Positions 5,949 through 52,794 of a DNA stretch of 64,000 nucleotides are shown one piece after another (position 1 is the first letter of the stretch; each line of letters begins with the position of its first letter). The stretch lies in NCBI GenBank assembly GCA_045562535.1, contig JBJKVP010000006.1:88413-152412 (forward strand), given 5' to 3'. The notes below the pieces were generated by a model. That model was given only the letters and a program-made list of their open reading frames with translations. It was not told where the DNA came from and ran no database searches. Position numbers and translations under genes: made by a program. Origin of the DNA: Dehalococcoidia bacterium. GTDB lineage: Bacteria > Chloroflexota > Dehalococcoidia > UBA6926.

Positions 5949-6434
5949 TTAGTTCTTGATTAACTTGGTTATGGAAACAGCATCTGGTTGTGCTCCTGTT
6001 TGTCGCCATAATTCATTTCCTTTCTCATCAAAGACTAAAACTGCAGGGACAAGTTGGATTTCATAATCCTCTCTAATTTTTCTGCCAGACTCAGTATTGA
6101 TGTCTACTCGAATAAACTGAGCTTTAGACTCCAGTTCTTTTTCTAGCCGGTCCAAGAGCGGCTTGGCTGAAAGGCATCCTAGTCAACGATTTGAATAAAA
6201 TGAAACTACCACCTTATCGCCCCCTCCAACGAGGGTTTCAAAATCTTGGGATTTTTGTAGGGAACTACTGTTGCTGCTTAAACTGATTTGAAGAAAACTT
6301 AAGCTTACTATAGCAATCAATAGGATGCCCCATTTCCAAATACTTCCTCCATCTAATTTCAACAATACAATAACGATGAACGCGATAATGAAACCAGAAA
6401 CTATCAGGAACGAATTTTCGTTAAGCGTATTCAT
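5949..6434 (-). CDS. membrane-anchored thioredoxin-fold protein with in-frame TGA (6183-6185) at the first position of the CxxC motif; candidate selenoprotein (U-L-G-C), or a pseudogene
   Basis: ORF fragments 6183..6434 and 5949..6155 are in the same frame, separated by TGA plus 9 sense codons. The joined protein has 2 TM helices followed by VVVSFYSNR-[TGA]-LGCLSAKPLL...FIRVDI...QLVPAVLVFDEKG. That is a thioredoxin/TlpA-like layout with a cis-Pro motif. The downstream fragment has only a TTG 'start' and no SD. Confidence 0.55.
6152..6166 (-). promoter_or_regulatory. hairpin CCAAG-CCGCU-CUUGG beginning 16 nt after the in-frame UGA (possible bacterial SECIS upper stem)
   Basis: Perfect 5-bp inverted repeat with a 5-nt loop containing G. 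The loop G lies 26 nt from the U of UGA. The stem is short, so this is weak evidence on its own. Confidence 0.3.
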
Positions 6435-6448
6435 AATGAATTTGGATT

Positions 6449-6691
6449 TTATCGATTATTACTGTTGTTATTTTCAGCAATGACATCGAGTAAAGCTAGA
6501 GCAGCGGCTTGAATTTGTGCCTCCATCTCAACATGTGTATCCCCATGCTCTTCTCTTCCATGACGATCTCGAGCATGAGCGAAAGGATCATATGTAGGGC
6601 TCTGAGGTTCTAAACGTTGCTGGTTTGCCTGTGTTTGTGCAAAGAGAAATTCCTTAAACTTTAGTTCTAATTCTTTTCTGGATAATGTCAT
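6449..6691 (-). CDS. hypothetical small protein (80 aa, His/Glu-rich centre HARDRHGREEHGDTHVEME)
   Basis: ORF lies directly upstream of, and on the same strand as, the thioredoxin-fold gene. I recognise no family. Confidence 0.4.
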   Translation of the reverse strand: MTLSRKELELKFKEFLFAQTQANQQRLEPQSPTYDPFAHARDRHGREEHGDTHVEMEAQIQAAALALLDVIAENNNSNNR

Positions 6692-6751
6692 AAGTGCTCT
6701 CCTTTTTACATTTATATTTGTTGTGTATAAAAAAGTTTTAATTCAAAAGGG

Positions 6752-6827
6752 GGTGGGCGATGGGATTCGAACCCACGATCACCAGAGCCACAATCTGGAG
6801 CCTTAAACCAGCTTGGCCACGCCCACC
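6752..6827 (-). tRNA. tRNA-His (anticodon GUG) with encoded G-1, no encoded CCA
   Basis: Reverse complement is G-GTGGGCGTGGCCAAGCTGGTTTAAGGCTCCAGATTGTGGCTCTGGTGATCGTGGGTTCGAATCCCATCGCCCAC-C. Anticodon loop TTGTGGC. Confidence 0.9.
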
Positions 6828-6942
6828 GCGATATAATTACATAGACGTAAGGCGTTTCTCAGTCTAACAATGGTTTAAATAGGGAGCAACAGTAAATTTT
6901 TTTTAACCATGCCCTTATAATCAAAACAACCAACAGTTCAGA

Positions 6943-8040: not shown

Positions 8041-8154
8041 TTTCCTAATGGAATGATCAAGCGATTGTTTAGGAATTTACAAGTGTTCATTATTTAGTGT
8101 TAGAATGACTGGTCGCAAGTTTTACATTAATTTTTCTTTGAGTACTAATATCAT

Positions 8155-10677: not shown

Positions 10678-10718
10678 AATTTCATACCTCTCTTACTGTT
10701 GGATATAGGTTAATTAGG

Positions 10719-12020: not shown

Positions 12021-12078
12021 CTATGAGCCCAGGTAGAGACTAGAAATATGTTGATACATTTAATAATCTAACGTTCTA

Positions 12079-12180
12079 CTAATTTTTCTTATCCGAGCCA
12101 TCTTTGTTTGATGCCATAAGCAACAAACCGCCTAAAACGCTTAGGATGATCCAGATAAATATTTTTAACCCTCTTGCCAT
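12079..12180 (-). CDS. possible 33-aa single-TM peptide (MARGLKIFIWIILSVLGGLLLMASNKDGSDKKN)
   Basis: ATG preceded by GGAGAG at 4 nt, with a hydrophobic core. Not in the ORF track because it is under 60 aa. Speculative. Confidence 0.25.
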   Translation of the reverse strand: MARGLKIFIWIILSVLGGLLLMASNKDGSDKKN

Positions 12181-12911: not shown

Positions 12912-13056
12912 CCTACATTTATTGTGAAATGGTCTTCATCGGTAATAGGCGTTTACATAGAATACACTATATTTATGAAGCTCTACAAAAGTAATTCTAC
13001 AATATAATGGAATCCCATTCCATCGCTTGTAAAGCTGCCCTGTAAATAGAGAATCC

Positions 13057-14752: not shown

Positions 14753-15973
14753 TTATATGATAGCTCCTTCTTCTTTAAATTGGCCGATTTGTTCCCATGA
14801 GTAACCTGCTTGCAGGAGTTTTTCCTCAGTGTGTTGCCCGAGGATTGGCGCACCGGAGACTGGGTCGATGTCTTCCCCTGATATTTTAAATGGAACCTTG
14901 ATGATTTCTACTTCTTTTTCGTAGGAATTCTCAATAATAGAAGTATAATCGTTTGCTTTTATTTGCGGATCTATTATTGATTCATCAAGGGTTTGAACAG
15001 GTGCCCATATACAACCCTCTTCATCTAATTTAGCTCCCCATTCCGCTAATGATTTTGATAAGAATATTTCTGTAAGCTCTTGTATCAATTCAGTACTGTT
15101 TTTAGCTCTACCCATGGCAGTTGCGGAGCCAAACCGGGCACCCAAATTTTCTATACCAAGGGCATTACAAAAACCCGGCCAAAAACGGTCGGAATCAAAC
15201 ATGACTAATTGTATCCATTTGAGATCTTTTGTCCTATAAAAATTCGATAGTGGATTGTTAGTATGTTTCGGTGAGTGCTTTTTAACTGCCTTTTTATGCC
15301 TCATAGCTGCCGCGAAATCTAATCCAAGAACCCATAATCCTGAATGTAAAAGAGAGCACTCTATTTTCCTGCCTTTACCTGTTCGTTCTTTGTCTAATAA
15401 AGCCAAAGATATACTTGTGGTCAATGCTAGAGAAGTTACTTGATCTCCCATACCAGGCCTTTGTTGTGCAGGTGATTCTCCCTCGTTACCGATAGAACCC
15501 ATTATTCCTGACCTTGCCCAGAAAGCAGCATAATCAAATCCTAAACGATCTCTCTCTTCTCCTTTGGTTCCATAACCGGTTAGAGCCACATAGATTATTT
15601 GTGGATTTGCAGTCAAACAATCCTCGTAGGTTAGGTTGTATTTTGCCTGTCTTTCAGGAACCAGATTGGTTACTACTATATCTACGTCCTCAACTAATTT
15701 ACGAACTATTTCTTGTCCATAAGTGTTACCCAGATTTATACCAACGCTTTTTTTTCCTCTGTTCAGCTGTTCGAAAGATGTATTCTCATCGTCTGACTCA
15801 CTCGTTATGATCCCATCAGGCGTCACGTCTATGCTTCTCACAGGATCCCCAGTCTCTGGATGCTCAATCTTTGTAACCTCAGCACCAAGGTCCGCAAGAA
15901 TTGAACATGCTGATGGAGCAGCTACCCAGTTTGCGATTTCCAAAACTTTAATGCCTTTTAGCAGTTCTGACAT
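14753..15973 (-). CDS. family III CoA-transferase (CaiB/BaiF/Frc type)
   Basis: 406 aa with GIKVLEIANWVAAPSACSILADLGAEVTKIE. Catalytic-Asp region RPGMGDQVTS. Confidence 0.85.
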   Translation of the reverse strand: MSELLKGIKVLEIANWVAAPSACSILADLGAEVTKIEHPETGDPVRSIDVTPDGIITSESDDENTSFEQLNRGKKSVGINLGNTYGQEIVRKLVEDVDIVVTNLVPERQAKYNLTYEDCLTANPQIIYVALTGYGTKGEERDRLGFDYAAFWARSGIMGSIGNEGESPAQQRPGMGDQVTSLALTTSISLALLDKERTGKGRKIECSLLHSGLWVLGLDFAAAMRHKKAVKKHSPKHTNNPLSNFYRTKDLKWIQLVMFDSDRFWPGFCNALGIENLGARFGSATAMGRAKNSTELIQELTEIFLSKSLAEWGAKLDEEGCIWAPVQTLDESIIDPQIKANDYTSIIENSYEKEVEIIKVPFKISGEDIDPVSGAPILGQHTEEKLLQAGYSWEQIGQFKEEGAII

Positions 15974-16123
15974 ATAGCCCCCTATTTATTTATAACCCAT
16001 TCTGACACGCAAGTGTCCCATGCTTGAACCAAAAATCCTATTTTGGATAGTTTGTTCATAATAGCTCATCATTGTCATTATAATTAAAGAAACGATCACA
16101 CTAAAAGGGGTGTCGTATTTGAA

Positions 16124-17197
16124 ATGAAAGATAAGTTCGCTGGTACCTCCCAAGTATTCCCTGGGTATAACTTAATCATACCGAATGGTCCTATTCAAAG
16201 CATGGGTAGAAATGGGCTAGATAACAACGCTTATCTTATAGATATGCACGGTGAAGTTCGCCACAAATGGGAGGTTAGCTCAGGCCTAAAGTATGGAATG
16301 CTGCTACCTAATGGTAATTTATTGGCTAGAACCAGGGCTCCTAAACAGTTGTCAATGGGGATACCACCGCTTGCTGGGTCGAGTGCATCAATTATAGAAA
16401 TTGACTGGGATAGTAATCTTATATGGAACTACGAGCATAATTCACTGCACCATGATTTTTCCCGAATAAAAAATGGTAATACGATAGCCCTTTTATGGGA
16501 GCAAATTCCAGTTCATCTTGTATCAAATATAAAAGGCGGGGTACAGCCTGATAAAAAAAGCGAATTCATGTTTGGTGATGTCTTGAGAGAAATAGATTCT
16601 AAAGGCGAAATTGTTTGGGAATGGAGATCTTGGGAGCATTTAGATTTTGATAACCAGGTTATTTGTGAAATGGAAAAAAGAGATGAGTGGACACATGCAA
16701 ATTCGGTATTTGTAATGCCAGATAACAACATATTAGTGAGTCTCAGAAACACTAATACCATCATCATTATAGATAAGGTTACTGGAGATATAGTTTGGGA
16801 ATGGGGAAGCGATGTCTTGCAGCACCAACACGATGCTACTTTATTGGATGAAACAAAGATTTTGGTTCTTGATAATGCTACACATAAGAATCAAGGTGCC
16901 AGGGTTATGATTGTCGATATTTTGACCCGTAAGGTGATTTGGGAATACTCTGGACCAAAAGACCGACCATTTAAAGCACCTTACGCAGGATCAGTAGAAA
17001 GACTTCCAAATGGCAATTGGTTTATATGCCAAGGTTCCGAAGGTAAAATATTTGAAAGCGATGGATCGGGGAGCATATTATGGGAATATACTAACCCGTA
17101 TTTTATACCAAACCAGTCAGGACAGCTGAACAATGGGTTATTTAGAGTACATCGATACCCTGTAGACCATCCCATATTTCGAGATAAGAATTTGTAG
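16124..17197 (+). CDS. beta-propeller protein, arylsulfotransferase (ASST)-like (tentative)
   Basis: 357 aa, no signal peptide. Recurring blade motif hWE(W/Y) (LIWNYEH, IVWEWRSWEH, IVWEWGSD, VIWEYSG, ILWEYTNP). Family assignment is from memory of ASST-like repeats only. Confidence 0.4.
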   Translation: MKDKFAGTSQVFPGYNLIIPNGPIQSMGRNGLDNNAYLIDMHGEVRHKWEVSSGLKYGMLLPNGNLLARTRAPKQLSMGIPPLAGSSASIIEIDWDSNLIWNYEHNSLHHDFSRIKNGNTIALLWEQIPVHLVSNIKGGVQPDKKSEFMFGDVLREIDSKGEIVWEWRSWEHLDFDNQVICEMEKRDEWTHANSVFVMPDNNILVSLRNTNTIIIIDKVTGDIVWEWGSDVLQHQHDATLLDETKILVLDNATHKNQGARVMIVDILTRKVIWEYSGPKDRPFKAPYAGSVERLPNGNWFICQGSEGKIFESDGSGSILWEYTNPYFIPNQSGQLNNGLFRVHRYPVDHPIFRDKNL

Positions 17198-17252
17198 TAT
17201 CCCTGTCAACTTGTGGTTCGTTAAAGAAATCTTTTTTTCTGTAAAACCAGCG

Positions 17253-19688
17253 CTAACTAAGAGCTCCTTTCTTTTTTAAATTAGCAGTAGTTTTTTTTGA
17301 GAATCCTAATACTTCTTCAAACACGTATTGGTTATGTTCTCCCATTGCGGGGGCTGGATTGGTTGATGTCCCAGGGGTTTCTGATAAATGAACGTTCAGG
17401 CCTTGATGTTCTGTAAAGCCGAATTCTGGGTGGTCTATCTGAACAATTCCTTCGGCCCTAGATCGTAAATGCACGTCGTGATAAAGATCTTCTGCGTTCA
17501 TTACGGCGCTGGCGGGGACTCCTGCTTTTTGAAGGATCCTTGCTACGGTTGTTGCTGTGAACTGGTTTGTCCATTCATTTAATCGTTGATCTAGTGCCTC
17601 TTTATTAGCGACTCTGCTATCTATATTTGAATACTCCGTTTGTTCTGCCCAGCTGGGTGAACCGATAGCGGTCTTTAGATTTTCCCATTGTTCTTGATTT
17701 TGTATTGAGATTGCGCACCATGAGTCGTAGCCTACACAAGAATAAACATCATGAGGAGCAGCTTCGCTTGAGTTGTTGCCAACAGGTTTCGGAGGCCGCT
17801 GATTGTGAGTATAGTCAATTATTCCGACGCCCAGGAAATGCGCCATCGCTTCCAGTTGGGCTATTTCAATAAGTTGGCCACTACCTGTCCGATCTCGATA
17901 TTCCAATGCTCCAACGACTGACATGGCGCCCAATATCGCGGCAACGTAATCTGGGAATGGCATTTTCACCCTTGTGTCCAGCGGGCTACTTTCTGCACCC
18001 CAGAGGTGAGTGAGTCCGGTCATGCCCATTACTTGCTGTCCATAAGATCGGTATTCATGGATAGGACCAGAAGATCCCATTCCTGGCATTGATAGCATGA
18101 TAATATCTTCTTTATATTTTTTTACTTCGGAGTAACTAATCCCTAGTTTCTCCATAACTCCTGGCCTAAAATGCTCTATAATCACGTCACTCTTTTTAAC
18201 CAATTGGAAGAAAGTCTCTTTCCCCTCTTTGGTCCTGATGTCGATGGTGACACTGAGTTTATTTCTGTTCATATCAGTGTAATTAGTCCCCATTGTTCTT
18301 GGGTTCTCTAATCCTTCGGATTCTATTTTTATTACCTCTGCGCCAAAGAATCCTAGATACATTGCTCCAATAAATCCTGCATGCGCTCTTGTTAGATCTA
18401 TCACTCTTATACCTGTTAGAGGAGAATCTAAGGATGTTATGGGCGGTGTTTTTTTAGCTGATGCCGGTGTTTTTTTAATGGAAGCTTTTCCTCTTAACTG
18501 CTCTTTTATTTCTTTGGTATGTTCACCAATGGTTGGAGCTGGGCGTGACGCTTGCCACTTAGACTTTTCGTAGATTACAGGGGGTCCTGGTCTCTTAAAT
18601 TTTCCGATTACCGGATGATCTTCTTCGACTATGAACCCTCTTTCTTCTACGTGAGGGTGCTTAACAAACTCTTCCATTTTTAGTAGAGGGACTATAGGAA
18701 TTCCGCCTTTTTGCCCTTTTTCTACAAGTTCATCCCTGTTAACCTGTATCGCGAATTCTTGAACGAAAGAATCAATCATTTCTCTATTCTCAGTTCGAAC
18801 CTCTCGTTTTTGCCAAAGCGGGTCTGACAGAATGGGATGGTCAAGAACGTTTCGGGCGAGTCTTCCAAAATGCTCGTCTGAATAAACTGAGATATTTACG
18901 TATCCAGAATCGGCTGTGTGATAAGTGTTGACCGCACCAAAAGCAGTGTGAGAACCTTCCCTTCTAGTGATCATATCTAGATACTGGTATCTGGATATAT
19001 AGCTATTTTGAAGCCATAAAACAACCTCTTGCCTAGATACGTCTATGTGTTGTCCATTACCCGCAAGAATTGATTTTGCCCTAATAGCTAAGAGTGCTCC
19101 AAATGCTCCATGAATTGAGGCAAATTGAGACAAAAGCTCGAATGGGGCCATGCAGGGAGCAGCATTATCGTCACCGTTCGCATACATTATTCCCCCTGCT
19201 GCTGCTGCTATCAGTTCTCCGCCTACCCAACTTGCTTTTGGGCCAGACTGCCCGAAAGGAGTAATCGATATATATATTAGATTTGGGTTAAGATCGTGTA
19301 TGGTTTCATAATCTAACCCTAAAGTTTTCAGAAACCCTGGCTGAAAATCTTCGACTAGAATATCGGCTTGCTGAATCAAGTCGACCAAGACACTCCGGTC
19401 TTCATCCGAAGATGTGAAATCTAAAACAATACTCCTCTTACTTCTGTTTGCATTGATAAATGATAAGCTCCGTTCAGGGCCAGCAATATCTTCAGCAAAA
19501 GGGCCAATTGACCTTGAGGGGTCGCCCCCTGAAGGCTCTACCTTTATCACATCTGCGCCTAGATCACCTAAAGTCCTTGCGCACATTTGCGACAGGTGAC
19601 TAGTTAAATCTATAACGCTATATCCGTCCAGTATGGAAGTAGCGGTATTGGACTGCTGATCAATAGCCATGGTTATCTCATTTTCCAT
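17253..19688 (-). CDS. tandem-fused double family III CoA-transferase (two CaiB/BaiF modules in one 811-aa chain)
   Basis: Module 1: YSVIDLTSHLSQMCARTLGDLGADVIKVEP. K/P/T-rich linker: KKTPASAKKTPPITS. Module 2: IRVIDLTRAHAGFIGAMYLGFFGAEVIKIES. Its start overlaps the upstream gene's end by 16 nt. Confidence 0.8.
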   Translation of the reverse strand: MENEITMAIDQQSNTATSILDGYSVIDLTSHLSQMCARTLGDLGADVIKVEPSGGDPSRSIGPFAEDIAGPERSLSFINANRSKRSIVLDFTSSDEDRSVLVDLIQQADILVEDFQPGFLKTLGLDYETIHDLNPNLIYISITPFGQSGPKASWVGGELIAAAAGGIMYANGDDNAAPCMAPFELLSQFASIHGAFGALLAIRAKSILAGNGQHIDVSRQEVVLWLQNSYISRYQYLDMITRREGSHTAFGAVNTYHTADSGYVNISVYSDEHFGRLARNVLDHPILSDPLWQKREVRTENREMIDSFVQEFAIQVNRDELVEKGQKGGIPIVPLLKMEEFVKHPHVEERGFIVEEDHPVIGKFKRPGPPVIYEKSKWQASRPAPTIGEHTKEIKEQLRGKASIKKTPASAKKTPPITSLDSPLTGIRVIDLTRAHAGFIGAMYLGFFGAEVIKIESEGLENPRTMGTNYTDMNRNKLSVTIDIRTKEGKETFFQLVKKSDVIIEHFRPGVMEKLGISYSEVKKYKEDIIMLSMPGMGSSGPIHEYRSYGQQVMGMTGLTHLWGAESSPLDTRVKMPFPDYVAAILGAMSVVGALEYRDRTGSGQLIEIAQLEAMAHFLGVGIIDYTHNQRPPKPVGNNSSEAAPHDVYSCVGYDSWCAISIQNQEQWENLKTAIGSPSWAEQTEYSNIDSRVANKEALDQRLNEWTNQFTATTVARILQKAGVPASAVMNAEDLYHDVHLRSRAEGIVQIDHPEFGFTEHQGLNVHLSETPGTSTNPAPAMGEHNQYVFEEVLGFSKKTTANLKKKGALS

Positions 19689-20467
19689 TGAGGAGATCGT
19701 CGCTCCGTGAAAGCTAACGGCCCTTCTTTAGCATCTTCGCTGCCTAAAACTTTGGCAGATAATTCTTTAGAGAAGCGTTGTGAATTTTCAGGCGACATAC
19801 TTTTGCCCGTGTAAGCTATTTCTTTGATCGCCTGGACCGCAAGAGGTGCGCAGCTTTTTATTTGTTCAGCAATCCGCAAGCACGCTGCCATGACTTCCTC
19901 TCTATCTTCGACCACCTCTTGTATTAAACCTGATCGAAGCGCGTCTTCTGATGAGACTCTTTCCCCTGTCAACATTATTTTTAGTGCATCTCCTAGTGGC
20001 ATCATACGGGTCAGATAATGTAGTCCGTAACCTGGCATTATGCTCCACCTTGGCTCCGGCAGCCCAAACTGGGATTTTTTGCTAGCAACCCTTATGTCAC
20101 ATTGCATTGCTAATTCCAATCCTCCGGCTACACAAAACCCGTCGATGGCGGCTATTATTGGTTTCCATACACCTAAATCAGGAATATATTGGGACCCTAA
20201 GCTTGCTTCTGCAAAAGCTGATAACCCCTCTTCCTGCCTTTCGTTGACTTCCTTTAAGTCAGCTCCTGCTGAGAAGGCTTTTCCTCCTGCTCCAGTAACT
20301 ATGGCTACAAAAACTTCTGGGTCATTTTTGATTTCAATCCATGCATTATAAAGGCCTTCATTTACTGAGCTATTTAATGCGTTTAAAGCTTCGGGACGAT
20401 TAATGGTCACATACGCGATGTTGTCCTTCTTCTCATAGATTACGGTGTTATTTGTTGAGTTCGCCAT
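19673..20467 (-). CDS. enoyl-CoA hydratase/isomerase (crotonase) family
   Basis: 264 aa with VIYEKKDNIAYVTINRPEALNAL, GAGGKAFSAGADLKE, DGFCVAGGLELAMQCD. Confidence 0.85.
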   Translation of the reverse strand: MANSTNNTVIYEKKDNIAYVTINRPEALNALNSSVNEGLYNAWIEIKNDPEVFVAIVTGAGGKAFSAGADLKEVNERQEEGLSAFAEASLGSQYIPDLGVWKPIIAAIDGFCVAGGLELAMQCDIRVASKKSQFGLPEPRWSIMPGYGLHYLTRMMPLGDALKIMLTGERVSSEDALRSGLIQEVVEDREEVMAACLRIAEQIKSCAPLAVQAIKEIAYTGKSMSPENSQRFSKELSAKVLGSEDAKEGPLAFTERRSPQWKMR

Positions 20468-33062: not shown

Positions 33063-33096
33063 ATAGTTAATATTTGTAAGGATTGGAAGGAATAAG

Positions 33097-35373: not shown

Positions 35374-35399
35374 ATAATTATGAATGGAGTGAGTGACAG

Positions 35400-36119: not shown

Positions 36120-36145
36120 AAAAAAAGGACGGAAAGAATACAAGA

Positions 36146-37549: not shown

Positions 37550-37614
37550 GGATTGGAGTGCAGAATTGATTTTGAATATTAATGGGGATTTAGAGGAGAT
37601 AGAAAGAGCGTAAC

Positions 37615-39006
37615 ATGCAAGATCGACCCACATTAACGCCTACACAGATCAACGACGAGTTACTGTGGCCTGTTTTCTCCTTTAGAAAACGGCACGCGGT
37701 AGCATTCATTCCGCCGATGATATTGTTAATGGGTGGCGTAGCAGCTGTTACTATCCTTATCTATCAAGGACTTTGGGTTACCGGACTGCAGAGGCCCGCC
37801 TTTTGGGGATTTTTCATTGTTAATTTCGTTTTCTGGATTGGGGTGAGCCACGCGGGGACTATGATTTCCGCAATATTGCGTTTGACCCAAGCAGAATGGA
37901 AGAGACCTATTACAAGAGCAGCTGAGGTCATGACAATATTTTCTTTGGTGACTTCATTATTACACCCTGTTATTCACGCCGGTAGACCTTGGCGGATTAT
38001 ATATTGGTTACTACCTTACGATTTTTCGAGAGGTATATGGCCTGACGTTCGGTCTCCTCTCGTTTGGGACCCAATAGCAATAACAACCTATTTAACAGGT
38101 AGCGTATTGTTCGTTTTCACAGCGTTGATACCAGATTTTGCATTGATTCGTGATCAGAGTACCGGACTTAGGAAGAAAATTTATGGGAGTTTGGCTTTCG
38201 GTTGGAGAGGGACTCCCAGACAATGGAAATTGCAAGGAATATTTGGAATATTGATGTCAGCACTGATTCTTCCAGTTTTCGTTTCGGTTCATAGTATAGT
38301 TTCTTGGGATTTCGCGGTCTCAGTCGTTCCTGCGTGGCACGTTACCGTTTATGCGCCATATTTTGTTATCGGTGCTGTTCATTCGGGAGTCTCCATGGTT
38401 TTGACATTGATGGCTCTTATGAGATGGATATTCAAATTAGAGAATTATATCTGGGAAGATCATTTTGACGCAGTTGGGAGACTTTTAATAGTAATCGCCA
38501 CCTTGTGGTTATTTTTCTTTTTCCTTGATTTTGCGTTCTCATTTTATACGAGAGAAGAGCAAGAGTTGGCAGTGATGGAAAGACGTCTTTTCGAATGGCC
38601 CTTTAATGCTATTACGGTGATCATGGTGTTCACTTCATATGTTATTCCTATACCATTGTGGTTAAGTAGGAGAGTACGAAGGAATATTCCATTGATGTTC
38701 TGGACATCTATACTTGTCAATATTGGTATGTGGCTAGAGAGATATTTCCTGATAATACCTGCGATCGAGCGCAAAAATGAGCTTACCTTCCTTTGGTCTA
38801 ATTATGTTCCGAGTTTGATTGAGAGCTTGGTAGTGTTGGCGTCCTTTGGTATGGTTGGCTTCTTGTTATTACTTTTTGCGAAAGTTGTTCCTTTGGTTCC
38901 TGCTTGGGAAGCGAAGGAGGGAGTAGTATTCAGAGAAGATGTCCAATTCGGAGAAGTAGTACTTCCCGGAATTATTAAAGAAACAGAAGAGGAAAATGTT
39001 TGGTAG
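37615..39006 (+). CDS. actC: NrfD/PsrC-like quinol-interacting membrane subunit (ActC-like)
   Basis: 463 aa with FWGFFIVNFVFWIGVSHAGTMISAILRLTQAEWKRPITRAAEVMTIF, typical of the NrfD family. Confidence 0.75.
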   Translation: MQDRPTLTPTQINDELLWPVFSFRKRHAVAFIPPMILLMGGVAAVTILIYQGLWVTGLQRPAFWGFFIVNFVFWIGVSHAGTMISAILRLTQAEWKRPITRAAEVMTIFSLVTSLLHPVIHAGRPWRIIYWLLPYDFSRGIWPDVRSPLVWDPIAITTYLTGSVLFVFTALIPDFALIRDQSTGLRKKIYGSLAFGWRGTPRQWKLQGIFGILMSALILPVFVSVHSIVSWDFAVSVVPAWHVTVYAPYFVIGAVHSGVSMVLTLMALMRWIFKLENYIWEDHFDAVGRLLIVIATLWLFFFFLDFAFSFYTREEQELAVMERRLFEWPFNAITVIMVFTSYVIPIPLWLSRRVRRNIPLMFWTSILVNIGMWLERYFLIIPAIERKNELTFLWSNYVPSLIESLVVLASFGMVGFLLLLFAKVVPLVPAWEAKEGVVFREDVQFGEVVLPGIIKETEEENVW

Positions 39007-39030
39007 TGGTCGTTGTTAAGGAGCTTCGAA

Positions 39031-39552
39031 ATGGCGGATAATAAAGATTTAATGGGTGTTTTTGCAGATACAGATACTGCGGCAGAGGGCGCTCGCCAAT
39101 TAAAGAGTGCTGGGTTTGTACAGGATGATTATGATGTTCTTACTGGCAACCCTTACCCCGAGGGAGCCTTTGGTGAGCATGTAAAACCGAATCGTCTGTT
39201 TGTCTTTGCTTTAGCGGGGGGCTTTGTTGGCTTTGCTATAGCATTCTTATTTACTGCAGCAACCCAAACTGCTTGGCCGTTAGTTACTGGCGGAAAACCA
39301 ATTCTGGCACTACCGGCAATGATGATAATTATGTATGAAATGACTTTGTTGTTTGCCATGATTTTCACCGTTACTGGTGTGATTTTTGAAAGTAGATTGC
39401 CTAGGCTTGGTGGCGAAGGACCTGTATACGACACAAGAATTACTTTGGGGTATATAGGTTTAATAGTCACTACTACTGAAGATCGCTTAGAAAAGGCAGA
39501 GGAAGCTTTTAAGGCGGCCGGTGCTGAGGATATAGTGAGGGAGTCATCCTAG
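39031..39552 (+). CDS. actD: ACIII subunit ActD (DUF3341-like)
   Basis: MADNKDLMGVFADTDTAAEGARQLKSAGF soluble head plus 2 TM. Start at ATG 39031 (AAGGAG upstream). Confidence 0.7.
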   Translation: MADNKDLMGVFADTDTAAEGARQLKSAGFVQDDYDVLTGNPYPEGAFGEHVKPNRLFVFALAGGFVGFAIAFLFTAATQTAWPLVTGGKPILALPAMMIIMYEMTLLFAMIFTVTGVIFESRLPRLGGEGPVYDTRITLGYIGLIVTTTEDRLEKAEEAFKAAGAEDIVRESS

Positions 39553-39554
39553 AA

Positions 39555-40232
39555 GTGAAACTACTTAATCAGCTGATGCAAAAACAGCGTTCAAATAAAC
39601 TATCCGTTGCTGGGAAAAAACGAGTGATGGCAGTATCTGCCGTGTTATTTTTTCTTCTAAGCGGGTGTTCTGTAGGAGCTTATCCGGTCGATAACTTCCA
39701 AGAGATGCATTATTCACAGGCAATTCGGAGACAAGAAATGCCTGTTATGTCAGCACCTAGCAATTCTATTGGATATCAAGGAGCTGGAGGTCCTGCTGCC
39801 GAAGTCAGCGTACCCCCGGCGTATGATTTGATGAAACAAGAAGATTTGATTTTAGTCACGGCTAACCCTGTTGTTTTGAACGACCTTGTGCGCGATGAAG
39901 GAGAACAATTATTTATCCGTAATTGCGCGGTTTGCCACGGTATGGAAGGGGATTTGCAAGGTGGTGCTGGTCCAGCACTCTTGGCGGCTTCTTTTGAAGC
40001 GGCAGGGGTTAACCCTCCTTTAGATTTAACCTTAGGCGAAACGAAAAATAGAACGGATGGAGATATCTTTGGAATACTGACTCATGGTCAAGGCTCTATA
40101 CCGGCGCCGTCTGATGCTGTTGATCCTGAGGTATGGTCTACATTGACGAGCATGCCCTCGTTTTCAAAATTACTTACAACTGAACAACGGTGGGCAATTG
40201 TTCACCACTTGAGAAAACTGCAAGGCTCTTAA
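39555..40232 (+). CDS. actE: ACIII monohaem cytochrome c subunit ActE, probable lipoprotein
   Basis: Lipobox FLLSGC. Single CAVCHG haem motif with distal TSMPSF Met candidate. Start ambiguous (GTG 39555 or ATG 39576). Confidence 0.7.
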   Translation: MKLLNQLMQKQRSNKLSVAGKKRVMAVSAVLFFLLSGCSVGAYPVDNFQEMHYSQAIRRQEMPVMSAPSNSIGYQGAGGPAAEVSVPPAYDLMKQEDLILVTANPVVLNDLVRDEGEQLFIRNCAVCHGMEGDLQGGAGPALLAASFEAAGVNPPLDLTLGETKNRTDGDIFGILTHGQGSIPAPSDAVDPEVWSTLTSMPSFSKLLTTEQRWAIVHHLRKLQGS

Positions 40233-46183: not shown

Positions 46184-46233
46184 CCATGGTATTGTTGTAT
46201 GAGGGTAAGCTATATATTGGGGGATTTCTAAAA

Positions 46234-49146
46234 ATGCCGACACGGGCTATAAAAGTAAAAGGTGCTCGGGAGAATAACCTAAAAAATATCGATGTTGAAA
46301 TTCCGAGAGATCGCCTAGTAGTCATTACGGGGGTTTCAGGGTCTGGGAAAAGCTCTTTAGCTTTCGATACAATATATGCCGAAGGTCAAAGACGGTATGT
46401 AGAATCATTGTCTGCGTATGCACGGCAATTTTTGGGGCGTATGGAAAAACCTAATGTTGAATATATAGAAGGGCTATCTCCCGCAATATCCATTGACCAA
46501 AAGGGAGTTTCGCACAATCCTAGGTCCACTGTTGGCACTGTTACAGAAGTCTACGATTACCTTAGGCTTTTATTTGCAAGAATTGGTATACCGCATTGCC
46601 CTAACTGTGGGACAAAAATAGAAAGCCAAACTGTTCAACAGATAGCCGACGCAATACTATCTGTTCCCCAGGAAACTCGTTTAGTCTTGATGTCACCGAT
46701 GGTAACGAGGCGAAAAGGTGAACATCAAACTATATTTGACGAAGCAAAAAGGTCTGGGTTTGTTAGAGTCAGAGTGAATGGTGACATTTTGGATCTTTCA
46801 GACGAAATTAAGCTTAATAAACAGAAATGGCACACAATTGAGGTCGTAGTTGACCGCCTTGTCATTAATGACCAAATTGACGAGTTACGCTCTCGGCTGA
46901 CTGATTCTTTAGAGACCGCTCTCAAACTTGGAAATGGACTTATAAAAGTTCTTGATTCCGAAACGGGTGAGGAAAGTTTATTCAGCGAACATTTTGCGTG
47001 TGTAGAATGTGGTTATTCGATAGATGAAATCGAACCTCGGACATTTTCCTTTAACAATCCGCAAGGAGCTTGTTCGGATTGTACCGGATTAGGTTATAAA
47101 CTTGAGATAGAGCCCGACCTAGTAATACCCGATACAAATCTTAGTCTTGAAGAAGGGGCGATTTTGCCTTGGAAACGTTCTGGCACAATGGCTCCTTGGT
47201 ATTCGTCGATCTTGAGAGCCGCCTCTACTGCGTTTGACATAGATATAAAAACACCGTTATCAGAATTTAATGATGCCCAGATGGGCTGGCTTCTTTATGG
47301 CCAAGGTCTTGTCCGTGAGAATACTAAACTTGAAGTTAGGCATCGAACTCGAAGAGGCAGAGAAATTAAGTTCGATACTAATTTTGAAGGAGTGATTCCG
47401 AATTTAGCACGACGCCATAGGGAAACCTCATCGGATCATCAACGTAAAGAGATAGAGCGATTCATGGCGAAGAAGCCGTGTTTATCTTGTGGAGGCAAAC
47501 GCTTAAGCCCCGGAGCACTCGCAGTAACAATAGGAACAAATAATATTAATGAAATCACTGCACTTTCTATAGATTCGGCTAAATATTGGGTGGATGAATT
47601 ACAGACAAGCGACGGGTTTTTGTCTAGCCGGGAAGCCTTGATCGCCGCCCAAATTCTTAAAGAAATATCTTCACGATTACAATTTCTCACTAATGTTGGC
47701 CTTGAGTACTTAACGTTAGATCGTACGGCATCAACTTTATCTGGAGGGGAAGCCCAGAGAATACGCTTAGCAACTCAAATAGGCTCAGGTCTTGTGGGCG
47801 TATTATATATATGTGATGAGCCTTCTATTGGATTGCATCCTGTAGACAATTCTCGCCTGATAGAAACTTTGAAAACCCTACGTGATTTAGGTAATACCGT
47901 TATTGTCGTCGAACATGATGAAGCTCTTATGAGAGCAGCAGATCATATAATTGATATTGGTCCTGGAGCCGGAGAACATGGAGGTCAACTTGTTGCTCAG
48001 GGGAGAATTGAAAACATAACTAAATCGAAAGATTCCGTAACAGGTGCATACTTGAGTGGTGCCAGAAGTATCCCCACTCCTTCTTCACGGCGTACTCCAA
48101 AAACTGGCTATGAAATCAGTATAATCAATGCCCGTGAAAATAATTTAAAAAACATTAATGTTGATATTCCGCTTGGTCTTCTAACATGCGTGACAGGCGT
48201 GTCGGGATCTGGAAAGTCGAGTTTGGTATATGAAGTTTTGCATAAGAGGATGGCACAGAAATTATATAATGCTAAAGAGCTACCTGGCCTTTCTGATGGC
48301 ATCAATGGAATTGAACATGTCGACAAAGTTATAAATATAGATCAAGCTCCTATTGGGCGTACCCCTAGATCAAATCCTGCTACGTATACAGGGGCGTTTA
48401 CTCCGATTAGAGAATTATTTGCGTCAGTTCAGGAATCAAGAATTAGAGGATATAAACCGGGGCGTTTTTCTTTTAATGTCAAAGGTGGTAGATGTGAAAC
48501 GTGTCGAGGAGAAGGTTACCAAACTATAGAAATGCAATTCTTGCCCGACGTTACAGTACCTTGTGAAGTTTGTTCAGGGGCTCGGTATAATCGTGAGGCT
48601 TTGGAAATTAAATTCAAAGACCTATCCATCGCGAATGTCTTGGATTTGAGTGTTGACGAGGCTCTTCCAGTTTTCGAATCGATACCGAAAGTGTTCAATC
48701 GTTTGAAAACTATGGCGGATGTGGGACTAGGCTATATGCGTCTTGGGCAACCGGCTACAACACTTTCGGGAGGCGAAGCTCAAAGAGTAAAATTGGCTAC
48801 TGAGCTATCAAAAAGGGCTACAGGTAAGACATTATATATTTTAGATGAACCTACAACAGGGCTCTCTTTCTCGGACGCACACGCGTTGTTGGACGTTTTG
48901 CATCGACTAGTAGATCGAGGCAATACCGTTGTTCTTATAGAGCACCATTTAGATTTGATTAAAAATGCTGATTGGATTATTGATTTAGGTCCCGGGCCTG
49001 GAGATAGAGGTGGAGAAATAGTTGCTGAAGGACCTCCGGAGCTTATTATGGAAATTGGTAGCAGCTATACGGGTAAATACTTAAACGATGTTATAAAAAA
49101 GCAGGAAGAACCTGAAAGAAGTCAAGAGGTAGCACTTGCCGATTGA
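46234..49146 (+). CDS. uvrA: excinuclease ABC subunit A
   Basis: [46 protein letters not shown], with two ABC modules and zinc-finger Cys clusters. Start moved to ATG 46234 within ORF 46186..49146. Confidence 0.95.
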
Positions 49147-49210
49147 AAAACCCCAATGATTAGAATTGTTTATATGTTTTTATAATATAACAGGGACCAG
49201 GTGAGGTTGA

Positions 49211-49882
49211 TTGGTGTCACAGAACGACGGGATTTTCCAGGCACAAGAAATGGTGGGGGCTATAGATCTTGGTGCTTTACTCAATTTAACTATCGACCCT
49301 GTATTTGGTTATGTATTCATCTTGATTGGAATAGCCTTATGTCTTATTGGGTATATTTTATACCGATTTATGATTGCATTAACCGTAGCTGTAGCATCAG
49401 GGACGGCCTTTTTTATTTTTGGCCCGACTTTCGGATTGGAATCTGGGCCTTTATGGATGGCTGCAATCGGAGTCTTTTTAATGTTATTAATAGTAGGTTG
49501 GCTGCTATACCACACTGCGGTTTTTATTATAGGCCTCGCCGCAGGAGCGTCCGTAGGGGTCTGGTTTTGGTTATTAGGTGCGGGTGAATTTTCTCTAGTT
49601 CAAACAATTACAGATTTATCTATAAGAAGAAGTGATATGTTTGCTTTGATAGCTACTGCAGCTGTTCCAGGTATTGCGATAGGGATTGTCGCTGTATCCT
49701 GGGAGCGTCGTTTGATTACTCTCATTGCTGTCATATTAGGGGGGACATTTATTTCCTTTGGAATAAGACATAGCCAAATTGGCGACCCTATTTCTCAATG
49801 GGCCCCTATTATAGCTGGTTTAACTATGGGGCTCGGCTTGTTCCTAAATGGGCGCAGTAGAGAAAAGGGAAACGCTCAATGA
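49211..49882 (+). CDS. polytopic membrane protein (6-7 TM), function unknown
   Basis: 223-aa hydrophobic ORF. The alternative-frame ORF 49201..49587 is rejected. Confidence 0.5.
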   Translation: MVSQNDGIFQAQEMVGAIDLGALLNLTIDPVFGYVFILIGIALCLIGYILYRFMIALTVAVASGTAFFIFGPTFGLESGPLWMAAIGVFLMLLIVGWLLYHTAVFIIGLAAGASVGVWFWLLGAGEFSLVQTITDLSIRRSDMFALIATAAVPGIAIGIVAVSWERRLITLIAVILGGTFISFGIRHSQIGDPISQWAPIIAGLTMGLGLFLNGRSREKGNAQ

Positions 49883-49903
49883 TGTATTTGATAAAATCGA
49901 ATT

Positions 49904-50554
49904 ATGCGTAGCGATGAGAAGGTACCACTTTTTATTGGAACATTGAATCCAGCTAAAAGAGAGAGGCTTGCTGGATGCTTTTCTTCTTGGCAATTCCATT
50001 TAGACTTTCCTAGAGGTATTAAACTACACGAGATTCCAGAAGAAACAGGAGACACCCATAAATCTAATGCTGTGGAGAAAGCCAAACATTGGTCTTCTTG
50101 GGCAAGCGGACACGCGGTGTCCAGTGATGGAGGCTTACAAATTCCGATATTGAACAATAATTGGGACAGTGTGTATACTCATCGGTTTGCAGGCCCTGAT
50201 GCAAATGACCAAGATCGTATAGATGCTTTGCTCGAACGGATGTCTGAGTATAGTGATGATGAGCGTTCTGCTTATTGGGAAGAGTCGGTCGCGCTAGGAT
50301 ATAAGGGCCGATTAATCAAGGAATGGTCAGTAAAGAGTAAACTAGGAAGAATAGCTTTGAAGCCATCTGAAATTAAAATCCACGGGTTTTGGGCTGCAAG
50401 CATTTGGGTATTCCCAGATATTGGTAAATCTTATACTGAGCTAAATCAAAAGGAACTTCAAAAGATTGGGGATCCTTGGGTTAATATTAAGAATAAGATA
50501 AAAATGTGGATGGACAATGATGGATGGGATAGTACTGTACTTAGACTACGGTAA
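49904..50554 (+). CDS. divergent Ham1/RdgB (ITPase)-like protein
   Basis: Collinear with RdgB blocks as recalled: FIGTLNPAKRERL (ATGNxGKxxE), EETGDTHKSNAVEKAK (EETGxTFxENAxxKA), SSDGGLQIP (ADDSGL), AGPDANDQDRIDALLERM. The C-terminal FGYDPIF and SHR motifs are not conserved (FWAASIWVF, GDPW). Confidence 0.5.
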   Translation: MRSDEKVPLFIGTLNPAKRERLAGCFSSWQFHLDFPRGIKLHEIPEETGDTHKSNAVEKAKHWSSWASGHAVSSDGGLQIPILNNNWDSVYTHRFAGPDANDQDRIDALLERMSEYSDDERSAYWEESVALGYKGRLIKEWSVKSKLGRIALKPSEIKIHGFWAASIWVFPDIGKSYTELNQKELQKIGDPWVNIKNKIKMWMDNDGWDSTVLRLR

Positions 50555-51451
50555 GGAAGCCATACCTTTTTCTTTTTCGATCAGACCGTCTTTTACTAAA
50601 GTATTAATCAGTTTTTCAAACCATATTTTATCTGTATGGGCAGAATAATCGGGTTTTATTAGGGAACCTAGTTTATCAATTTCAATAGGATCAATACGGC
50701 CCCGGAGTTCTTCGACAATTCTACCTCTGTAAAATCGGTTCGAGCCAACAAAAGTAGGATTTGTTTTCTTAGAAGATGGTGTGCCCATCTTGGTATTGTT
50801 TTTCGTAAAAACAAATCTTATCGAGGCTGAACAATTCAGTACTATGGGGCATGATTCACAGCTAGGTTTTCGGGATGTGCAAACGGTTGCACCTAAATCC
50901 ATTAAGGCTTGATGCCAATCTGGCGTTTTTGTTTTTTCTGGGAGGTACTTGGTTGCAGTATCCCATGCTAATTTATCAGTATCAAAAGATGATCCGTGGT
51001 CGACCCTGCCGATAACGCGTTTGATATTTATGTCTACCACCGGGACTCTTAGTTTAAAAGCGAAATTAGCTATTGCTGAAGCCGTATAACGACCAATACC
51101 TGGAAGCGCAACTAGGGATTCGAGTGATTTGGGGACTTGCCCATTATGATTTTGAACAATGATTTGAGCAGTTCTATGTAGGTTAACTGCGCGTTTGTTA
51201 TATCCCATTCCAGACCACTCTCTAATCACTGTACTCTTCGAAGCTTGTGCTAAGGAATACACATCTGGGAACTGTCGAATAAAAGAATCGTATTTATCGA
51301 TAACTCTACTAACTTGTGTTTGCTGTAGCATGATTTCCGAGACTAATATTTTGTAAGGGTCGTTAGTTTCTCTCCAAGGCAATTTGCGTCCAACATCTTT
51401 GTACCAAGAAAGTAATTGTTTGTGGAAGTATGTGTGATTTTGTTCGGACAT
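50546..51451 (-). CDS. mutY: HhH-GPD adenine glycosylase, MutY-like (short form without obvious NUDIX-like domain)
   Basis: LLSWYKDVGRKLPWR, ILVSEIMLQQTQV, LPGIGRYTASAIANFAF, FeS loop CTSRKPSCESCPIVLNC. Confidence 0.75.
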   Translation of the reverse strand: MSEQNHTYFHKQLLSWYKDVGRKLPWRETNDPYKILVSEIMLQQTQVSRVIDKYDSFIRQFPDVYSLAQASKSTVIREWSGMGYNKRAVNLHRTAQIIVQNHNGQVPKSLESLVALPGIGRYTASAIANFAFKLRVPVVDINIKRVIGRVDHGSSFDTDKLAWDTATKYLPEKTKTPDWHQALMDLGATVCTSRKPSCESCPIVLNCSASIRFVFTKNNTKMGTPSSKKTNPTFVGSNRFYRGRIVEELRGRIDPIEIDKLGSLIKPDYSAHTDKIWFEKLINTLVKDGLIEKEKGMASLP

Positions 51452-51618
51452 AATTAATATTCATTATGCGAATTATGAAACAGATGATCAATAGGATAAA
51501 TTGAACAACTTAATATATATGGAAATTCGTATAAATAGGTTGACGTCTGAATATAGGGTTAAGTAGAATTACCGGGTTGGGGGATAATTGATCTTATTCT
51601 TCACAGAAGGAGAATTCA

Positions 51619-52794
51619 ATGACAGGGACATTAAAAGGAAAAGCGGCTTTGGTAGGGGTTGGTTGGACTCCTGCTCGTAGAAAATGGCCGGATAAAACAC
51701 AAAAAGGTATGCAGGCAGACGTTGCCGCGATGGCAATCAAGGATGCAGGATTGCGCCCAGAGGACATCGATGGTCTGGTTACAGAAGCACCCGGAGGGGA
51801 AGACGCCAACAACTGGCCAGCTATAATGTCCGATTATTTAGGAATTAAGCCTAATATGGCCAGCGGAGTCAACAATATGGGCGCTACCGGTACTACCGGA
51901 ATAGTTCTTGCGTCTACTTGGGTTTCCAGCGGTCTTGCTGAGACAGTTCTACTCGTTTTTGGAGGTAATCAAGGGACCCAACCCAGAGTTGCTCCTAGGC
52001 CTAATCCATTTGTGGATCCATATGGCCCAGTTGTTGCTGCAAACGGTTGGTATGCTCAGGTCGCACGTCGACACGCTTTCGAGTATGGAACTACAGACGA
52101 AATGAGATTTAAAGTAGCAGCTGATCAGAGATTTAACTCACAAGTGACCCCAGGATCTGCTTTTCTTGAGCAGCCGATTACGGTACAGGACGTTGCTGAT
52201 TCTCGATATGTTGCAGACCCTCTCAGATTGCTCGAATGTGTTATGCCTTGTGCCGGAGGTGGGGCAATGATTGTCACAACACCGGAAAAAGCTCGAGCGA
52301 TGAAAAACAAACCAGTTTACATGCTTGGAGCTGGCCATCATACAGATCATAATGATTTGAGTTGGGCAGACCGAATTACAAGGACACCAGCCGTTGTTTC
52401 TGCTCCTAGAGCGTTCAACATGGCAGGGCTCAGTCCGAAAGATATGGATTTCGCTCAGATCTATGATTGCTATACCATAACGGTTATGGTGACTCTCGAA
52501 GACGCTGGGTTTATGCCTAAAGGTGAGTCAGGACCTTGGTACCAAGAGACTGATACTACCTATAAGGGAGATTTCCCAGTTAATACGCACGGTGGCCAGT
52601 TGTCTTACGGACAGCAGGCAGGAAACACCGGCGGCTTCTCACAGCCTATGGAAGCAACTCTCCAATTAATGGGGCGTGGTGGCGAAAGACAAGTTAAGGA
52701 TGCAACAACAGGATTCGTGAATGGTTGAGGCGGCATTTTGAGCAAGTTTTGCTCAATAGTTCTTACCAATGATGAGTCTTTGGCTAATTCTTAG
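51619..52794 (+). CDS. thiolase-superfamily protein (SCP2/Ltp2-like, DUF35 partner) with in-frame TGA at 52726-52728; the conventional model ends at 52728
   Basis: 369-aa ORF with YDCY (HDCF-like) and NTHGGQLS motifs. Gly sits at the usual nucleophile position (NNMGATG). After the TGA the same frame continues GGILSKFCSIVLTNDESLANS-TAG, which looks like the normal thiolase C-terminal strand. The SD of the next gene follows. Confidence 0.6.
52738..52756 (+). promoter_or_regulatory. perfect 7-bp hairpin TTGAGCA-AGTTT-TGCTCAA starting 9 nt after the in-frame UGA (candidate bacterial SECIS)
   Basis: All seven pairs are Watson-Crick. The 5-nt loop AGUUU has G at loop position 2, 20 nt from the U of UGA. 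No U-tract follows, so it is not a typical terminator. Confidence 0.45.

Follow-up and report, generated by a model that had tools for sequence, protein, structure and literature searches.

In a 64,000-nucleotide stretch of DNA from a Dehalococcoidia bacterium (GenBank assembly GCA_045562535.1, contig JBJKVP010000006.1, positions 88,413 to 152,412 of the forward strand; the window, hereafter), two genes are each interrupted by one in-frame TGA. One encodes a thiolase-fold protein and the other a membrane-anchored thioredoxin-like protein. Both TGAs are very probably real selenocysteine (Sec) codons, in a marine Dehalococcoidia genome that would decode specific UGAs as Sec. At each site the comparisons show that the TGA is conserved, that a translated continuation follows it, that structured RNA lies at the spacing of a selenocysteine insertion sequence (SECIS), and that homology places the codon in an active site. 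The thioredoxin-like gene is an ordinary member of a known selenoprotein kind, and the thiolase-like gene appears to belong to an undescribed, widespread selenoprotein family.

The original prediction, made from the letters of the window, had placed the two TGAs at 6183-6185 and 52726-52728 and had offered a selenium-utilising trait or a systematic artefact as the explanation. Both positions are exact, and each TGA is the single internal stop of its frame. As had been said, the genes are unrelated to each other and sit on opposite strands (a thioredoxin fold on the minus strand and a thiolase fold on the plus strand). The in-frame homologous continuation and the downstream hairpin proposed for each site are also borne out, with covariation in both stems. 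Between the two explanations the trait is favoured; an artefact is excluded, as both TGAs are found again at the homologous codon in dozens of assemblies of independent origin.

An in-frame UGA in a thiolase-like gene

The features of the thiolase-like locus are as follows.

51619..52794, plus strand: candidate thiolase-fold selenoprotein gene, like the side-chain aldolases (Sal) and the SCP2-thiolase-like protein (SLP); 391 codons including Sec370
52462..52473, plus strand: Y282-D283-C284-Y285 motif, with the Cys codon TGC at 52468-52470; matches the catalytic Tyr/Cys dyad of Sal-type aldolases
52726..52728, plus strand: UGA, putatively read as Sec370, in the motif N-G-U-G-G; aligned with the C of the thiolase CxG catalytic loop
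52729..52791, plus strand: the 21 codons after Sec370, GGILSKFCSIVLTNDESLANS, aligned to the stretch past the CxG loop
52738..52756, plus strand: candidate bacterial SECIS (bSECIS), UUGAGCAA / GUU / UUGCUCAA
52792-52794, plus strand: terminal stop, TAG
52822..53253, plus strand: DUF35-type partner gene (Zn-ribbon and OB-fold, ChsH2 C-terminal type; Pfam OB_ChsH2_C 4.2e-23, zf-ChsH2 3e-4)

The thiolase-like frame holds one internal TGA, in the context TTGFVNG-*-GGILSKFCSIVL, and the Pfam profile Thiolase_C_1 (PF22691, E=3.5e-47, residues 239-383) crosses it. Among the best 120 protein matches, 35 products end exactly at VN[GT]; they are 363-374 aa long, apart from P0033, which reaches 390 aa owing to a longer N-terminus. 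The full-length forms in the same set read N-GGIMSEQ... (77) or S-GG... (6). In full-length homologues the residue in the Sec370 column is N, S, T or I, with Asn, Thr and Ser in the nearest ones. The DNA of two relatives, one of them a far GC-richer organism with 53% identity, has a TGA followed by a homologous in-frame tail.

A genome scan with one genome per species yielded 80 loci, to which five loci fetched earlier were added. The Sec370 codon is a stop in 43 gene copies, and that stop is TGA in 43 of 43 and never TAA or TAG. These copies come mostly from Dehalococcoidia, as metagenome-assembled genomes (MAGs), and also from SAR202, other Chloroflexota and one Actinomycetota MAG. They comprise 39 distinct sequences. 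The comparison with close relatives that the original prediction had asked for came out in its favour: the orthologues keep homologous sequence past the TGA, and the following 16 codons are open in frame in all 39 distinct genes, against 15 and 30 in the other two frames. The extension is 16-21 codons long, mostly 18, and all 39 genes close it with TAA or TAG, never with TGA. The downstream in-frame homology holds across 45-99% protein identity and from 42% to ~62% GC, and the tail after Sec370 aligns to GGVMSEQGALIL of 9MYR and to GGVLSSAGTAI of 4U4E. A UGA at a homologous codon together with a translated homologous continuation is the mark of a selenoprotein gene, and the thiolase-like gene has both.

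The hairpin that follows Sec370 in the window gene has 8 bp and a triloop beginning G-U, with 17 nt from the UGA to the loop; its energy is -7.6 kcal/mol alone and -9.8 kcal/mol in context. It agrees with every constraint of the bSECIS model, namely a loop of 3-9 nt, an upper stem of 4-16 bp, a UGA-loop distance of 16-37 nt, a G in the first two loop positions and a minimum free energy <= -7.5 kcal/mol (PMC13188914). Single-sequence folding of the 91 nt past each UGA gave z-scores of ~0 in both genes and was uninformative, and we therefore relied on comparative analysis. In the family a hairpin follows each UGA, with a sequence that varies by subclade and registers that are slightly shifted. 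Over positions +6..+42 the mean fold is -12.7 kcal/mol in Sec-type genes vs -7.6 kcal/mol in 40 non-Sec homologues (Mann-Whitney p=5e-9), at similar GC (0.62 vs 0.59); the corresponding shuffle z-scores are -1.35 vs +0.11.

A single SECIS register for all thiolase homologues was tried and failed, as the pairs fall at i+j=44 (14 sequences), 48 (11), 42 (four) and a few other values. Covariation was for this reason counted only on a mainly register-44 subset of 16 distinct sequences, aligned without gaps in codon register (alignment A3). Compensatory changes occur there in 8 of 10 stem pairs, and 82% of cells are paired vs 24-51% in slid controls; 0 of 500 shuffles reach the observed score.

We note a second, near-perfect hairpin, GUCCUCGGGUCCGAGGAC, ~30-50 nt past the Sec370-equivalent UGA, where it spans the codons L-G-S-E-D at the end of the extension. 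Hairpins of this type occur in L008, L010, L011, L014-L018, L021, L023, L029, L033 and others, and the window gene has none. Such a hairpin might extend the base of the SECIS, act as a terminator or do something else.

A second in-frame TGA, again never another stop, replaces the Cys codon of the YDCY motif in 24 of the 43 Sec-type genes (site 1, read as Y-D-U-Y), 85-87 codons before the Sec370-equivalent UGA (site 2). Loci of this form are L010 (TGA at 4829-4831), L011, L013, L014, L019, L020, L022, L023, L026-L029, L031, L033, L035, L041, L052 and L071. A separate hairpin lies downstream of site 1, for example AUCCUCGAGGC-CGUGU-GCCUCGAAGAU at -12.9 kcal/mol, and the hairpin energy at this site is -11.7 kcal/mol in TGA forms vs -7.3 kcal/mol in 54 Cys forms (p=9e-8). 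Cys homologues at site 1 are common and include the window gene, with its TGC at 52468-52470. YD(C/U)Y is a classical Sec/Cys pair, at a Cys that is proven to be catalytic in the aldolase CtSal (below), and we regard it as the strongest single argument for Sec decoding in the family. Counted across both families, Sec/Cys alternation is seen at two of the three recoded positions.

In a neighbour-joining tree of the family, which carries no support values, the site 2 Sec forms make one deep clade with a single nested Asn form (L032), called a revertant, and Cys and Sec alternate at site 1 inside that clade. One further observation concerns site 1 in the window gene. At 52474-52490, one codon (UAU, 3 nt) past Cys284, the RNA can form a weak AU-rich hairpin of 7 bp, ACCAUAA-CGG-UUAUGGU, with -5.7 kcal/mol over 36 nt, in the same place as the first SECIS-like hairpin of the YD-U-Y relatives. 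It may be left over from an earlier Sec codon, or it may match by chance.

Active-site mapping and predicted chemistry

The best solved relative of the thiolase-like protein is CtSal (PDB 9MYR, E=1.7e-84), and the HMMER alignment runs through the UGA to residue 382. CtSal is the Comamonas testosteroni aldolase for bile-acid side chains, with a DUF35 domain bound to it; Tyr302 and Cys304 of its YDCY motif are essential by mutagenesis, the Cys is flanked by Gln347 and Gln352, and Gly391 contributes its backbone NH to the oxyanion hole (PMC12329534). Residues were mapped through the HMMER alignment with a 24-residue tag offset, verified on four residues, and correspond as follows.

Window Y282 and C284: CtSal Tyr302 and Cys304
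Window Q327 and Q332: CtSal Gln347 and Gln352
Window Sec370: CtSal Thr389 (of Thr389-Gly390-Gly391)
Window G372: CtSal Gly391

The YDCY motif is invariant in alignment A2. In thiolases the first residue of the CxG loop is the acid/base Cys and the third is the oxyanion-hole Gly (Cys378 and Gly380 in Z. ramigera, Cys413 and Gly415 in human T2), and the counterpart of CxG in thiolase-like proteins is, by structure-based alignment, NGG. Because the mapping to CtSal Gly391, the equivalence of CxG and NGG and the human T2 pair Cys413/Gly415 agree, Sec370 maps to the catalytic-Cys position of the CxG loop, two residues before the oxyanion-hole Gly. An alignment by motif alone, which put Sec370 at the x of CxG, was rejected on the same three grounds. 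The CxG loop joins strands C-beta-4 and C-beta-5 in thiolases, so that the 21 residues after Sec370 should supply C-beta-5; by the same mapping, a product terminated at the UGA would have neither C-beta-5 nor the oxyanion-hole Gly.

The protein is not a classical thiolase (EC 2.3.1.9 or 2.3.1.16), as only the CxG position is occupied, and by the predicted Sec. The nucleophilic Cys is replaced by Gly (MGATG for CxS), NEAF by YDCY, and GHP by GQQ (His by Gln332). With the CxS nucleophile missing, it cannot be a thiolase acting through a Cys89-type acyl-enzyme, and with the nucleophile, NEAF and GHP all replaced, the public name "acetyl-CoA acetyltransferase" is unlikely to be right. Its likeness to the classical Cys-His-Cys thiolases of Z. 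ramigera and human T2 lies in the fold and in Sec370-Gly-Gly at the C-x-G loop, where the classical enzymes use Cys as acid/base and the Gly NH as oxyanion hole 2.

The protein is consistent with an aldolase of the Sal/SLP type, judged by YDCY, a Gly in place of the nucleophile, Q327/Q332, G372 and the DUF35 gene. With CtSal and the Trypanosoma SLP it shares a thiolase fold that has Gly for the nucleophilic Cys, the YDCY dyad, the equivalents of Gln347/Gln352, the oxyanion-hole Gly and a DUF35 partner. It departs from CtSal in two residues, Sec370 for Thr389 and Ala141 for Gln161, the latter a side-chain oxyanion residue. It departs also in the partner: the DUF35 domain of CtSal is fused to a MaoC hydratase, whereas that of the window is a free-standing protein of 143 aa. 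The steroid aldolase TcLtp2-ChsH2(DUF35) (PDB 6OK1) is a more distant match (E=2.4e-37) that likewise has a DUF35 partner, no nucleophilic Cys and the Tyr of Y-D-x-F/Y, but Ltp2 relies on YDHF and Tyr344; the window protein has YDCY instead and lacks a counterpart of Tyr344.

A DUF35 homologue lies directly downstream of 35 of the 43 Sec-type genes, the window copy included, where the gene starts 28 nt past the stop codon of the thiolase-like gene and is probably co-transcribed with it. A Pfam scan of the window open reading frames (ORFs) found no steroid-pathway genes near the pair, and the other neighbours (an HhH-GPD glycosylase, two DinB paralogues and an esterase) give no pathway clue. 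The two DinB genes (53366-53881 and 53892-54425), directly after the thiolase-like/DUF35 pair, are tandem paralogues of the DinB_2 superfamily that are 54% identical.

We infer the inserted residue, the Sec machinery and the chemistry from sequence, and the following scheme is worded accordingly. In both genes the coding-sequence hairpin shortly past the UGA would recruit SelB with Sec-tRNA(Sec), and the ribosome would insert Sec and then read on to TAA or TAG. Together with its DUF35 partner, the thiolase-like protein would act as a Sal-like enzyme, either an acyl-CoA C-C lyase or a condensing enzyme. Sec370 would adjoin both the Tyr282/Cys284 dyad and the oxyanion hole for the thioester, and Sec370 and Cys284 together would form the reactive centre for C-C cleavage or formation in an acyl-CoA substrate. 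Sec370 could be a proton shuttle or a nucleophile, possibly in a Se-S bond with Cys284. The pKa of a selenol is 5.2, vs 8.3 for the Cys thiol, which would make Sec a weak general acid/base; given this low pKa and the members with Sec at both sites, we prefer a nucleophilic role, or one linked to Se-S/Se-Se redox chemistry, to a simple relay of protons, although such a role for Sec370 is speculative.

The thioredoxin-like gene and other readings of the UGA codons

The thioredoxin-like gene has the following features.

5949..6434, minus strand: candidate membrane-anchored thioredoxin-like selenoprotein gene, 161 codons including Sec84; N-terminal hydrophobic helices, then a thioredoxin (Trx) domain
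6183..6185, minus strand: UGA, putatively read as Sec84, first residue of U-L-G-C; place of the nucleophilic Cys of CxxC
6174..6176, minus strand: codon of the resolving Cys87 in UxxC; invariant column in the family alignment
6145..6163, minus strand (6163-6145): candidate bSECIS, AGCCG / 9-nt loop CUCUUGGAC / CGGCU
5949-5951, minus strand: terminal stop, TAA

The single internal stop of the frame 6434..5949 is a TGA in the context VVVSFYSNR-*-LGCLSAKP (VVVSFYSNR*LGCLSAKPLLDRLE), so that SNR-U-LG-C stands where CxxC is expected. The Pfam Thioredoxin profile (PF00085, E=1.5e-9, residues 61-151) spans the TGA, and TIGR01068 matches at 7.8e-14, under its equivalog cut-off. With a Trx domain and U84-L-G-C87 aligned with CxxC, the product has the features of a thioredoxin-fold oxidoreductase. 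A word-index protein search gave one homologue, at 79% identity, whose contig has TGA at the equivalent codon, read as Trp by a code-4 caller; an exhaustive HMMER search was then used. It recovered a family of ~160-aa proteins with N-terminal hydrophobic helices and a Trx domain, recorded as CxxC forms, as "WxxC" (TGA called Trp) or as ~75-aa fragments that start just past the TGA. Cys forms among the representatives are CVAC, CLGC and CLVC, and the family signature is YSN[YLF]-U-x-x-C-LSAKPxVDRLE. A metagenome scan for relatives gave 26 loci, 25 of which cover the Sec84 codon; in these marine homologues it is TGA in 24 of 25 (30-99% identity) and TGC in one (L107).

The hairpin stem begins 19 nt 3' of the UGA and has the family form AGCC(NN)-loop-(N'N')GGCU. 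In a codon-register alignment of 21 sequences (A6), 91% of cells are paired vs 7-52% with the partner columns slid, and compensatory changes occur in 3 of 6 pairs. One of these exchanges UA for GC between position 3 of a Pro codon and position 1 of an Arg codon (CCU/AGG vs CCG/CGG), a pattern that goes beyond what protein coding by itself accounts for. Most relatives have an apical loop GU[GU] closed by C-G, in agreement with the published bSECIS model, which the window hairpin fits only in part.

A kept UGA, Cys homologues and a candidate bSECIS together mark a bacterial selenoprotein gene, and all are present here. UxxC Trx-like proteins are among the commonest marine selenoproteins in the Global Ocean Sampling (GOS) selenoproteome (PMC2398784). 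The window gene matches the Trx-like 1-3 families of that survey in its thioredoxin fold, Sec at the first CxxC position, abundant Cys homologues, coding-region hairpin past the UGA and occurrence in marine metagenomes. What sets its subfamily apart from them is the N-terminal transmembrane helices and the signature given above. No selenoprotein-specific NCBIfam model scores above cut-off for the protein, which would be a membrane UxxC thiol-disulfide oxidoreductase with Sec in place of the attacking Cys.

Several observations weigh against reading the two UGAs as Sec. The identity of the inserted residue comes from sequence comparison, and the machinery is assumed, as neither the window nor the ~825 kb of fetched loci contains selA, selB, selC or selD. 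At site 2 the non-Sec relatives of the thiolase-like protein carry Asn, Thr or Ser, where Cys would be usual for relatives of a selenoprotein. A Cys-biased search yielded, in its top 120 matches, one Cys form at this site, P0274 (VNGCGG). P0274 (L111 8-370) has a degenerate FCDFY for YDCY and GGELAG for GGQLS, which suggests a paralogue that has diverged or is degenerating rather than a simple orthologue with Cys; the same search also gave P0272, an Asn form with a C-terminal tail like that of the Sec clade. The original prediction of a Cys-type position at both TGAs plainly holds at the thioredoxin CxxC, for which Cys forms occur. In the thiolase-like gene it holds relative to classical thiolases only: the closest full-length homologues have Asn, Thr or Ser and the one Cys form is divergent. 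The RNA elements are not all canonical: many loops in the thiolase family have their G at position 3, and the loop of the window thioredoxin hairpin has no G at either of its first two positions, with an energy of -6.5 kcal/mol alone. Finally, the compared sequences are mutually related, so that the p-values for the hairpin energies overstate independence.

Some of these points would suit a UGA that is read through by a near-cognate or suppressor tRNA inserting Trp, Cys, Arg or Gly, with the hairpins as generic stimulators: Sec machinery is not seen in the window or the fetched loci, the site 2 homologues are Asn, Thr or Ser, and several hairpins depart from the bSECIS loop rule. We nevertheless consider such read-through quite unlikely. 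UGA alternates with Cys codons at the CxxC of the thioredoxin-like family and at YDCY of the thiolase-like family, which is the signature of Sec, and both of these positions are catalytic; the hairpins stand at SECIS-like spacing, and the lineage is documented as rich in selenoproteins (PMC13326102). BSepDB lists Dehalococcoidia MAGs with 46-49 selenoprotein genes each, and a selenium trait is on that account already known in the class (PMC13326102).

If the TGAs were instead ordinary stops, the thioredoxin-like gene would be split or dead, the thiolase-like protein would function as a 369-aa form with its tail a decaying remnant, and the hairpin would be a terminator or attenuator before the DUF35 gene. 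Gene callers and GenBank do give the 369-aa product, and the hairpin does lie at the 3' end of the called ORF. Yet in 39 genes that differ by up to ~55% in protein the tail is open and homologous, runs for 16-21 codons and ends in TAA or TAG, and the stop at its head is always TGA. The hairpin stem is AU-rich, is followed by no clean U-run and covaries inside coding sequence. Truncation would be expected to drop C-beta-5 and the oxyanion-hole Gly, and it would leave a thioredoxin domain that ends before CxxC with no active site. This reading is very unlikely. Reassignment of TGA throughout the genome (code 4 or 25) is effectively refuted, and so is an artefact of sequencing or assembly. Some metagenome callers put Trp at these TGAs (P0121 and P0273, for example), but four window genes end in TGA, the other long genes have no internal TGA, and the same TGAs are found in many independent assemblies from different projects.

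The counts behind the last argument are these. In a greedy set of 51 ORFs tiling the window, the stops are TAA (28), TAG (18) and TGA (5), one of the TGAs being the in-frame codon of the thiolase-like gene, so that genuine TGA stops are rare (4 of 50 genes). The genes that end in them are the following.

46186-49146: gene with a genuine TGA stop
49211-49882: gene with a genuine TGA stop
55371-56903: gene with a genuine TGA stop
61265-62464: gene with a genuine TGA stop

In 46186-49146, 55371-56903 and 61265-62464 only 2-13 codons (12, 2 and 13) are open past the stop, and in three of the four the next gene starts 16-55 nt after it. Because these four genes end in a genuine TGA, genome-wide reassignment is excluded, in line with the original prediction. 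Its statement that the other long genes of the window are free of internal TGA agrees with our six-frame scan, which found none in them and no further TGA-split gene pair, only antisense and overlap noise. The TGA at 12936-12938, 27 nt upstream of the MsrB start, was dismissed, as it lies outside a complete SelR domain.

The window was also said to hold no sel gene and no tRNA-Sec, and Pfam, ARAGORN and Rfam concur. ARAGORN finds four tRNAs (Arg, His, Pro and Ile), three of which Rfam matches; Rfam has no matches in the window other than tRNAs, and neither program finds tRNA-Sec there. Nor did an ARAGORN run over all 112 fetched sequences. A Pfam scan of 50 window ORFs and three products of the two TGA loci found no SelA, SelB or SelD domain. 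The AIRS-domain protein at 25295-27499 is PurL-like, with an FGAR-AT linker.

Annotation, other genes of the window and significance

The 369-aa ORF of the window (51619-52728) is identical to GenBank MFL2640624.1, annotated as a truncated "thiolase family protein" of 369 aa, and its DUF35 neighbour is identical to MFL2640625.1. The expectation that gene callers split or truncate such genes is realised in this record. Every called product or gene copy of the Sec type that we examined ends at the UGA (35 of the best 120 matches, 68 of the best 120 in a second search, and the 43 fetched copies). The public records examined give the Sec-type members either as a truncated "thiolase family protein" or "acetyl-CoA acetyltransferase" with 363-374 aa, or as "hypothetical proteins" of 59-81 aa, many of them 79 aa, from SAR202, Dehalococcoidia and Nitrospinae MAGs; the latter are the segment between the two UGAs, called alone.

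No thiolase, acetyltransferase, aldolase or SCP-type entry stands in a 2026 review table of prokaryotic selenoprotein families, and no selenoprotein of these types is found in the GOS selenoproteome (PMC2398784) or in the deep-Sep or BSepDB papers (PMC13326102). NCBIfam release 20 has no selenoprotein-specific model for the family, and a full-text search for selenoprotein or selenocysteine with thiolase, in a limited literature set, found no such selenoprotein. We think it reasonably probable that these genes form a large unannotated family of thiolase-fold selenoenzymes, Sal/SLP-like C-C lyases of marine and subsurface Dehalococcoidia including SAR202, whose active site has a Sec in the CxG-loop position and, in about half of the members, another in place of the YDCY Cys. 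It would be the first selenoprotein of the thiolase superfamily and a rare use of Sec outside the oxidoreductases. The family appears unusual in its non-redox fold, in having up to two active-site Sec residues, and in the Asn or Thr that stands for Cys in non-Sec relatives.

Elsewhere in the window, three tandem lipoprotein-like genes (55371-56903, 56949-58460 and 58482-59903) encode a signal peptide, an FVACGGG lipobox and a PKKEEP-rich linker, and have no Pfam matches. Their first 50-78 residues are 88-94% identical and the rest <= ~21%, so that divergent domains seem to follow a leader that is shared or was converted. At 32529-40232 lies an operon resembling alternative complex III, with a multihaem cytochrome c7, a molybdopterin-oxidoreductase-like subunit that has no in-frame TGA, a 4Fe-4S protein, NrfD, ActD, a cytochrome c and a 467-aa ORF without Pfam match. 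At 14753-20467, two family III CoA-transferase genes, one an 811-aa fused double, adjoin an enoyl-CoA hydratase gene, which points to a cluster for acyl-CoA metabolism.

The great majority of known prokaryotic selenoproteins are redox enzymes that have Cys homologues. If confirmed, the thiolase-like family would widen the use of Sec, placing it in the catalytic loops of an enzyme that acts on C-C bonds in acyl-CoA substrates. It also exposes a blind spot of methods that search for Cys/Sec pairs: at the constant Sec site Cys counterparts are nearly absent, so a pipeline built on pairing TGA with Cys would be expected to pass over it. The family is misannotated in all public records examined, and the called products lack the stretch aligned to the last core strand. 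Recalcitrant alicyclic organic matter has candidate degraders in SAR202 and other Dehalococcoidia, and a selenium-dependent relative of the enzymes that cut steroid side chains would tie selenium supply to carbon turnover.

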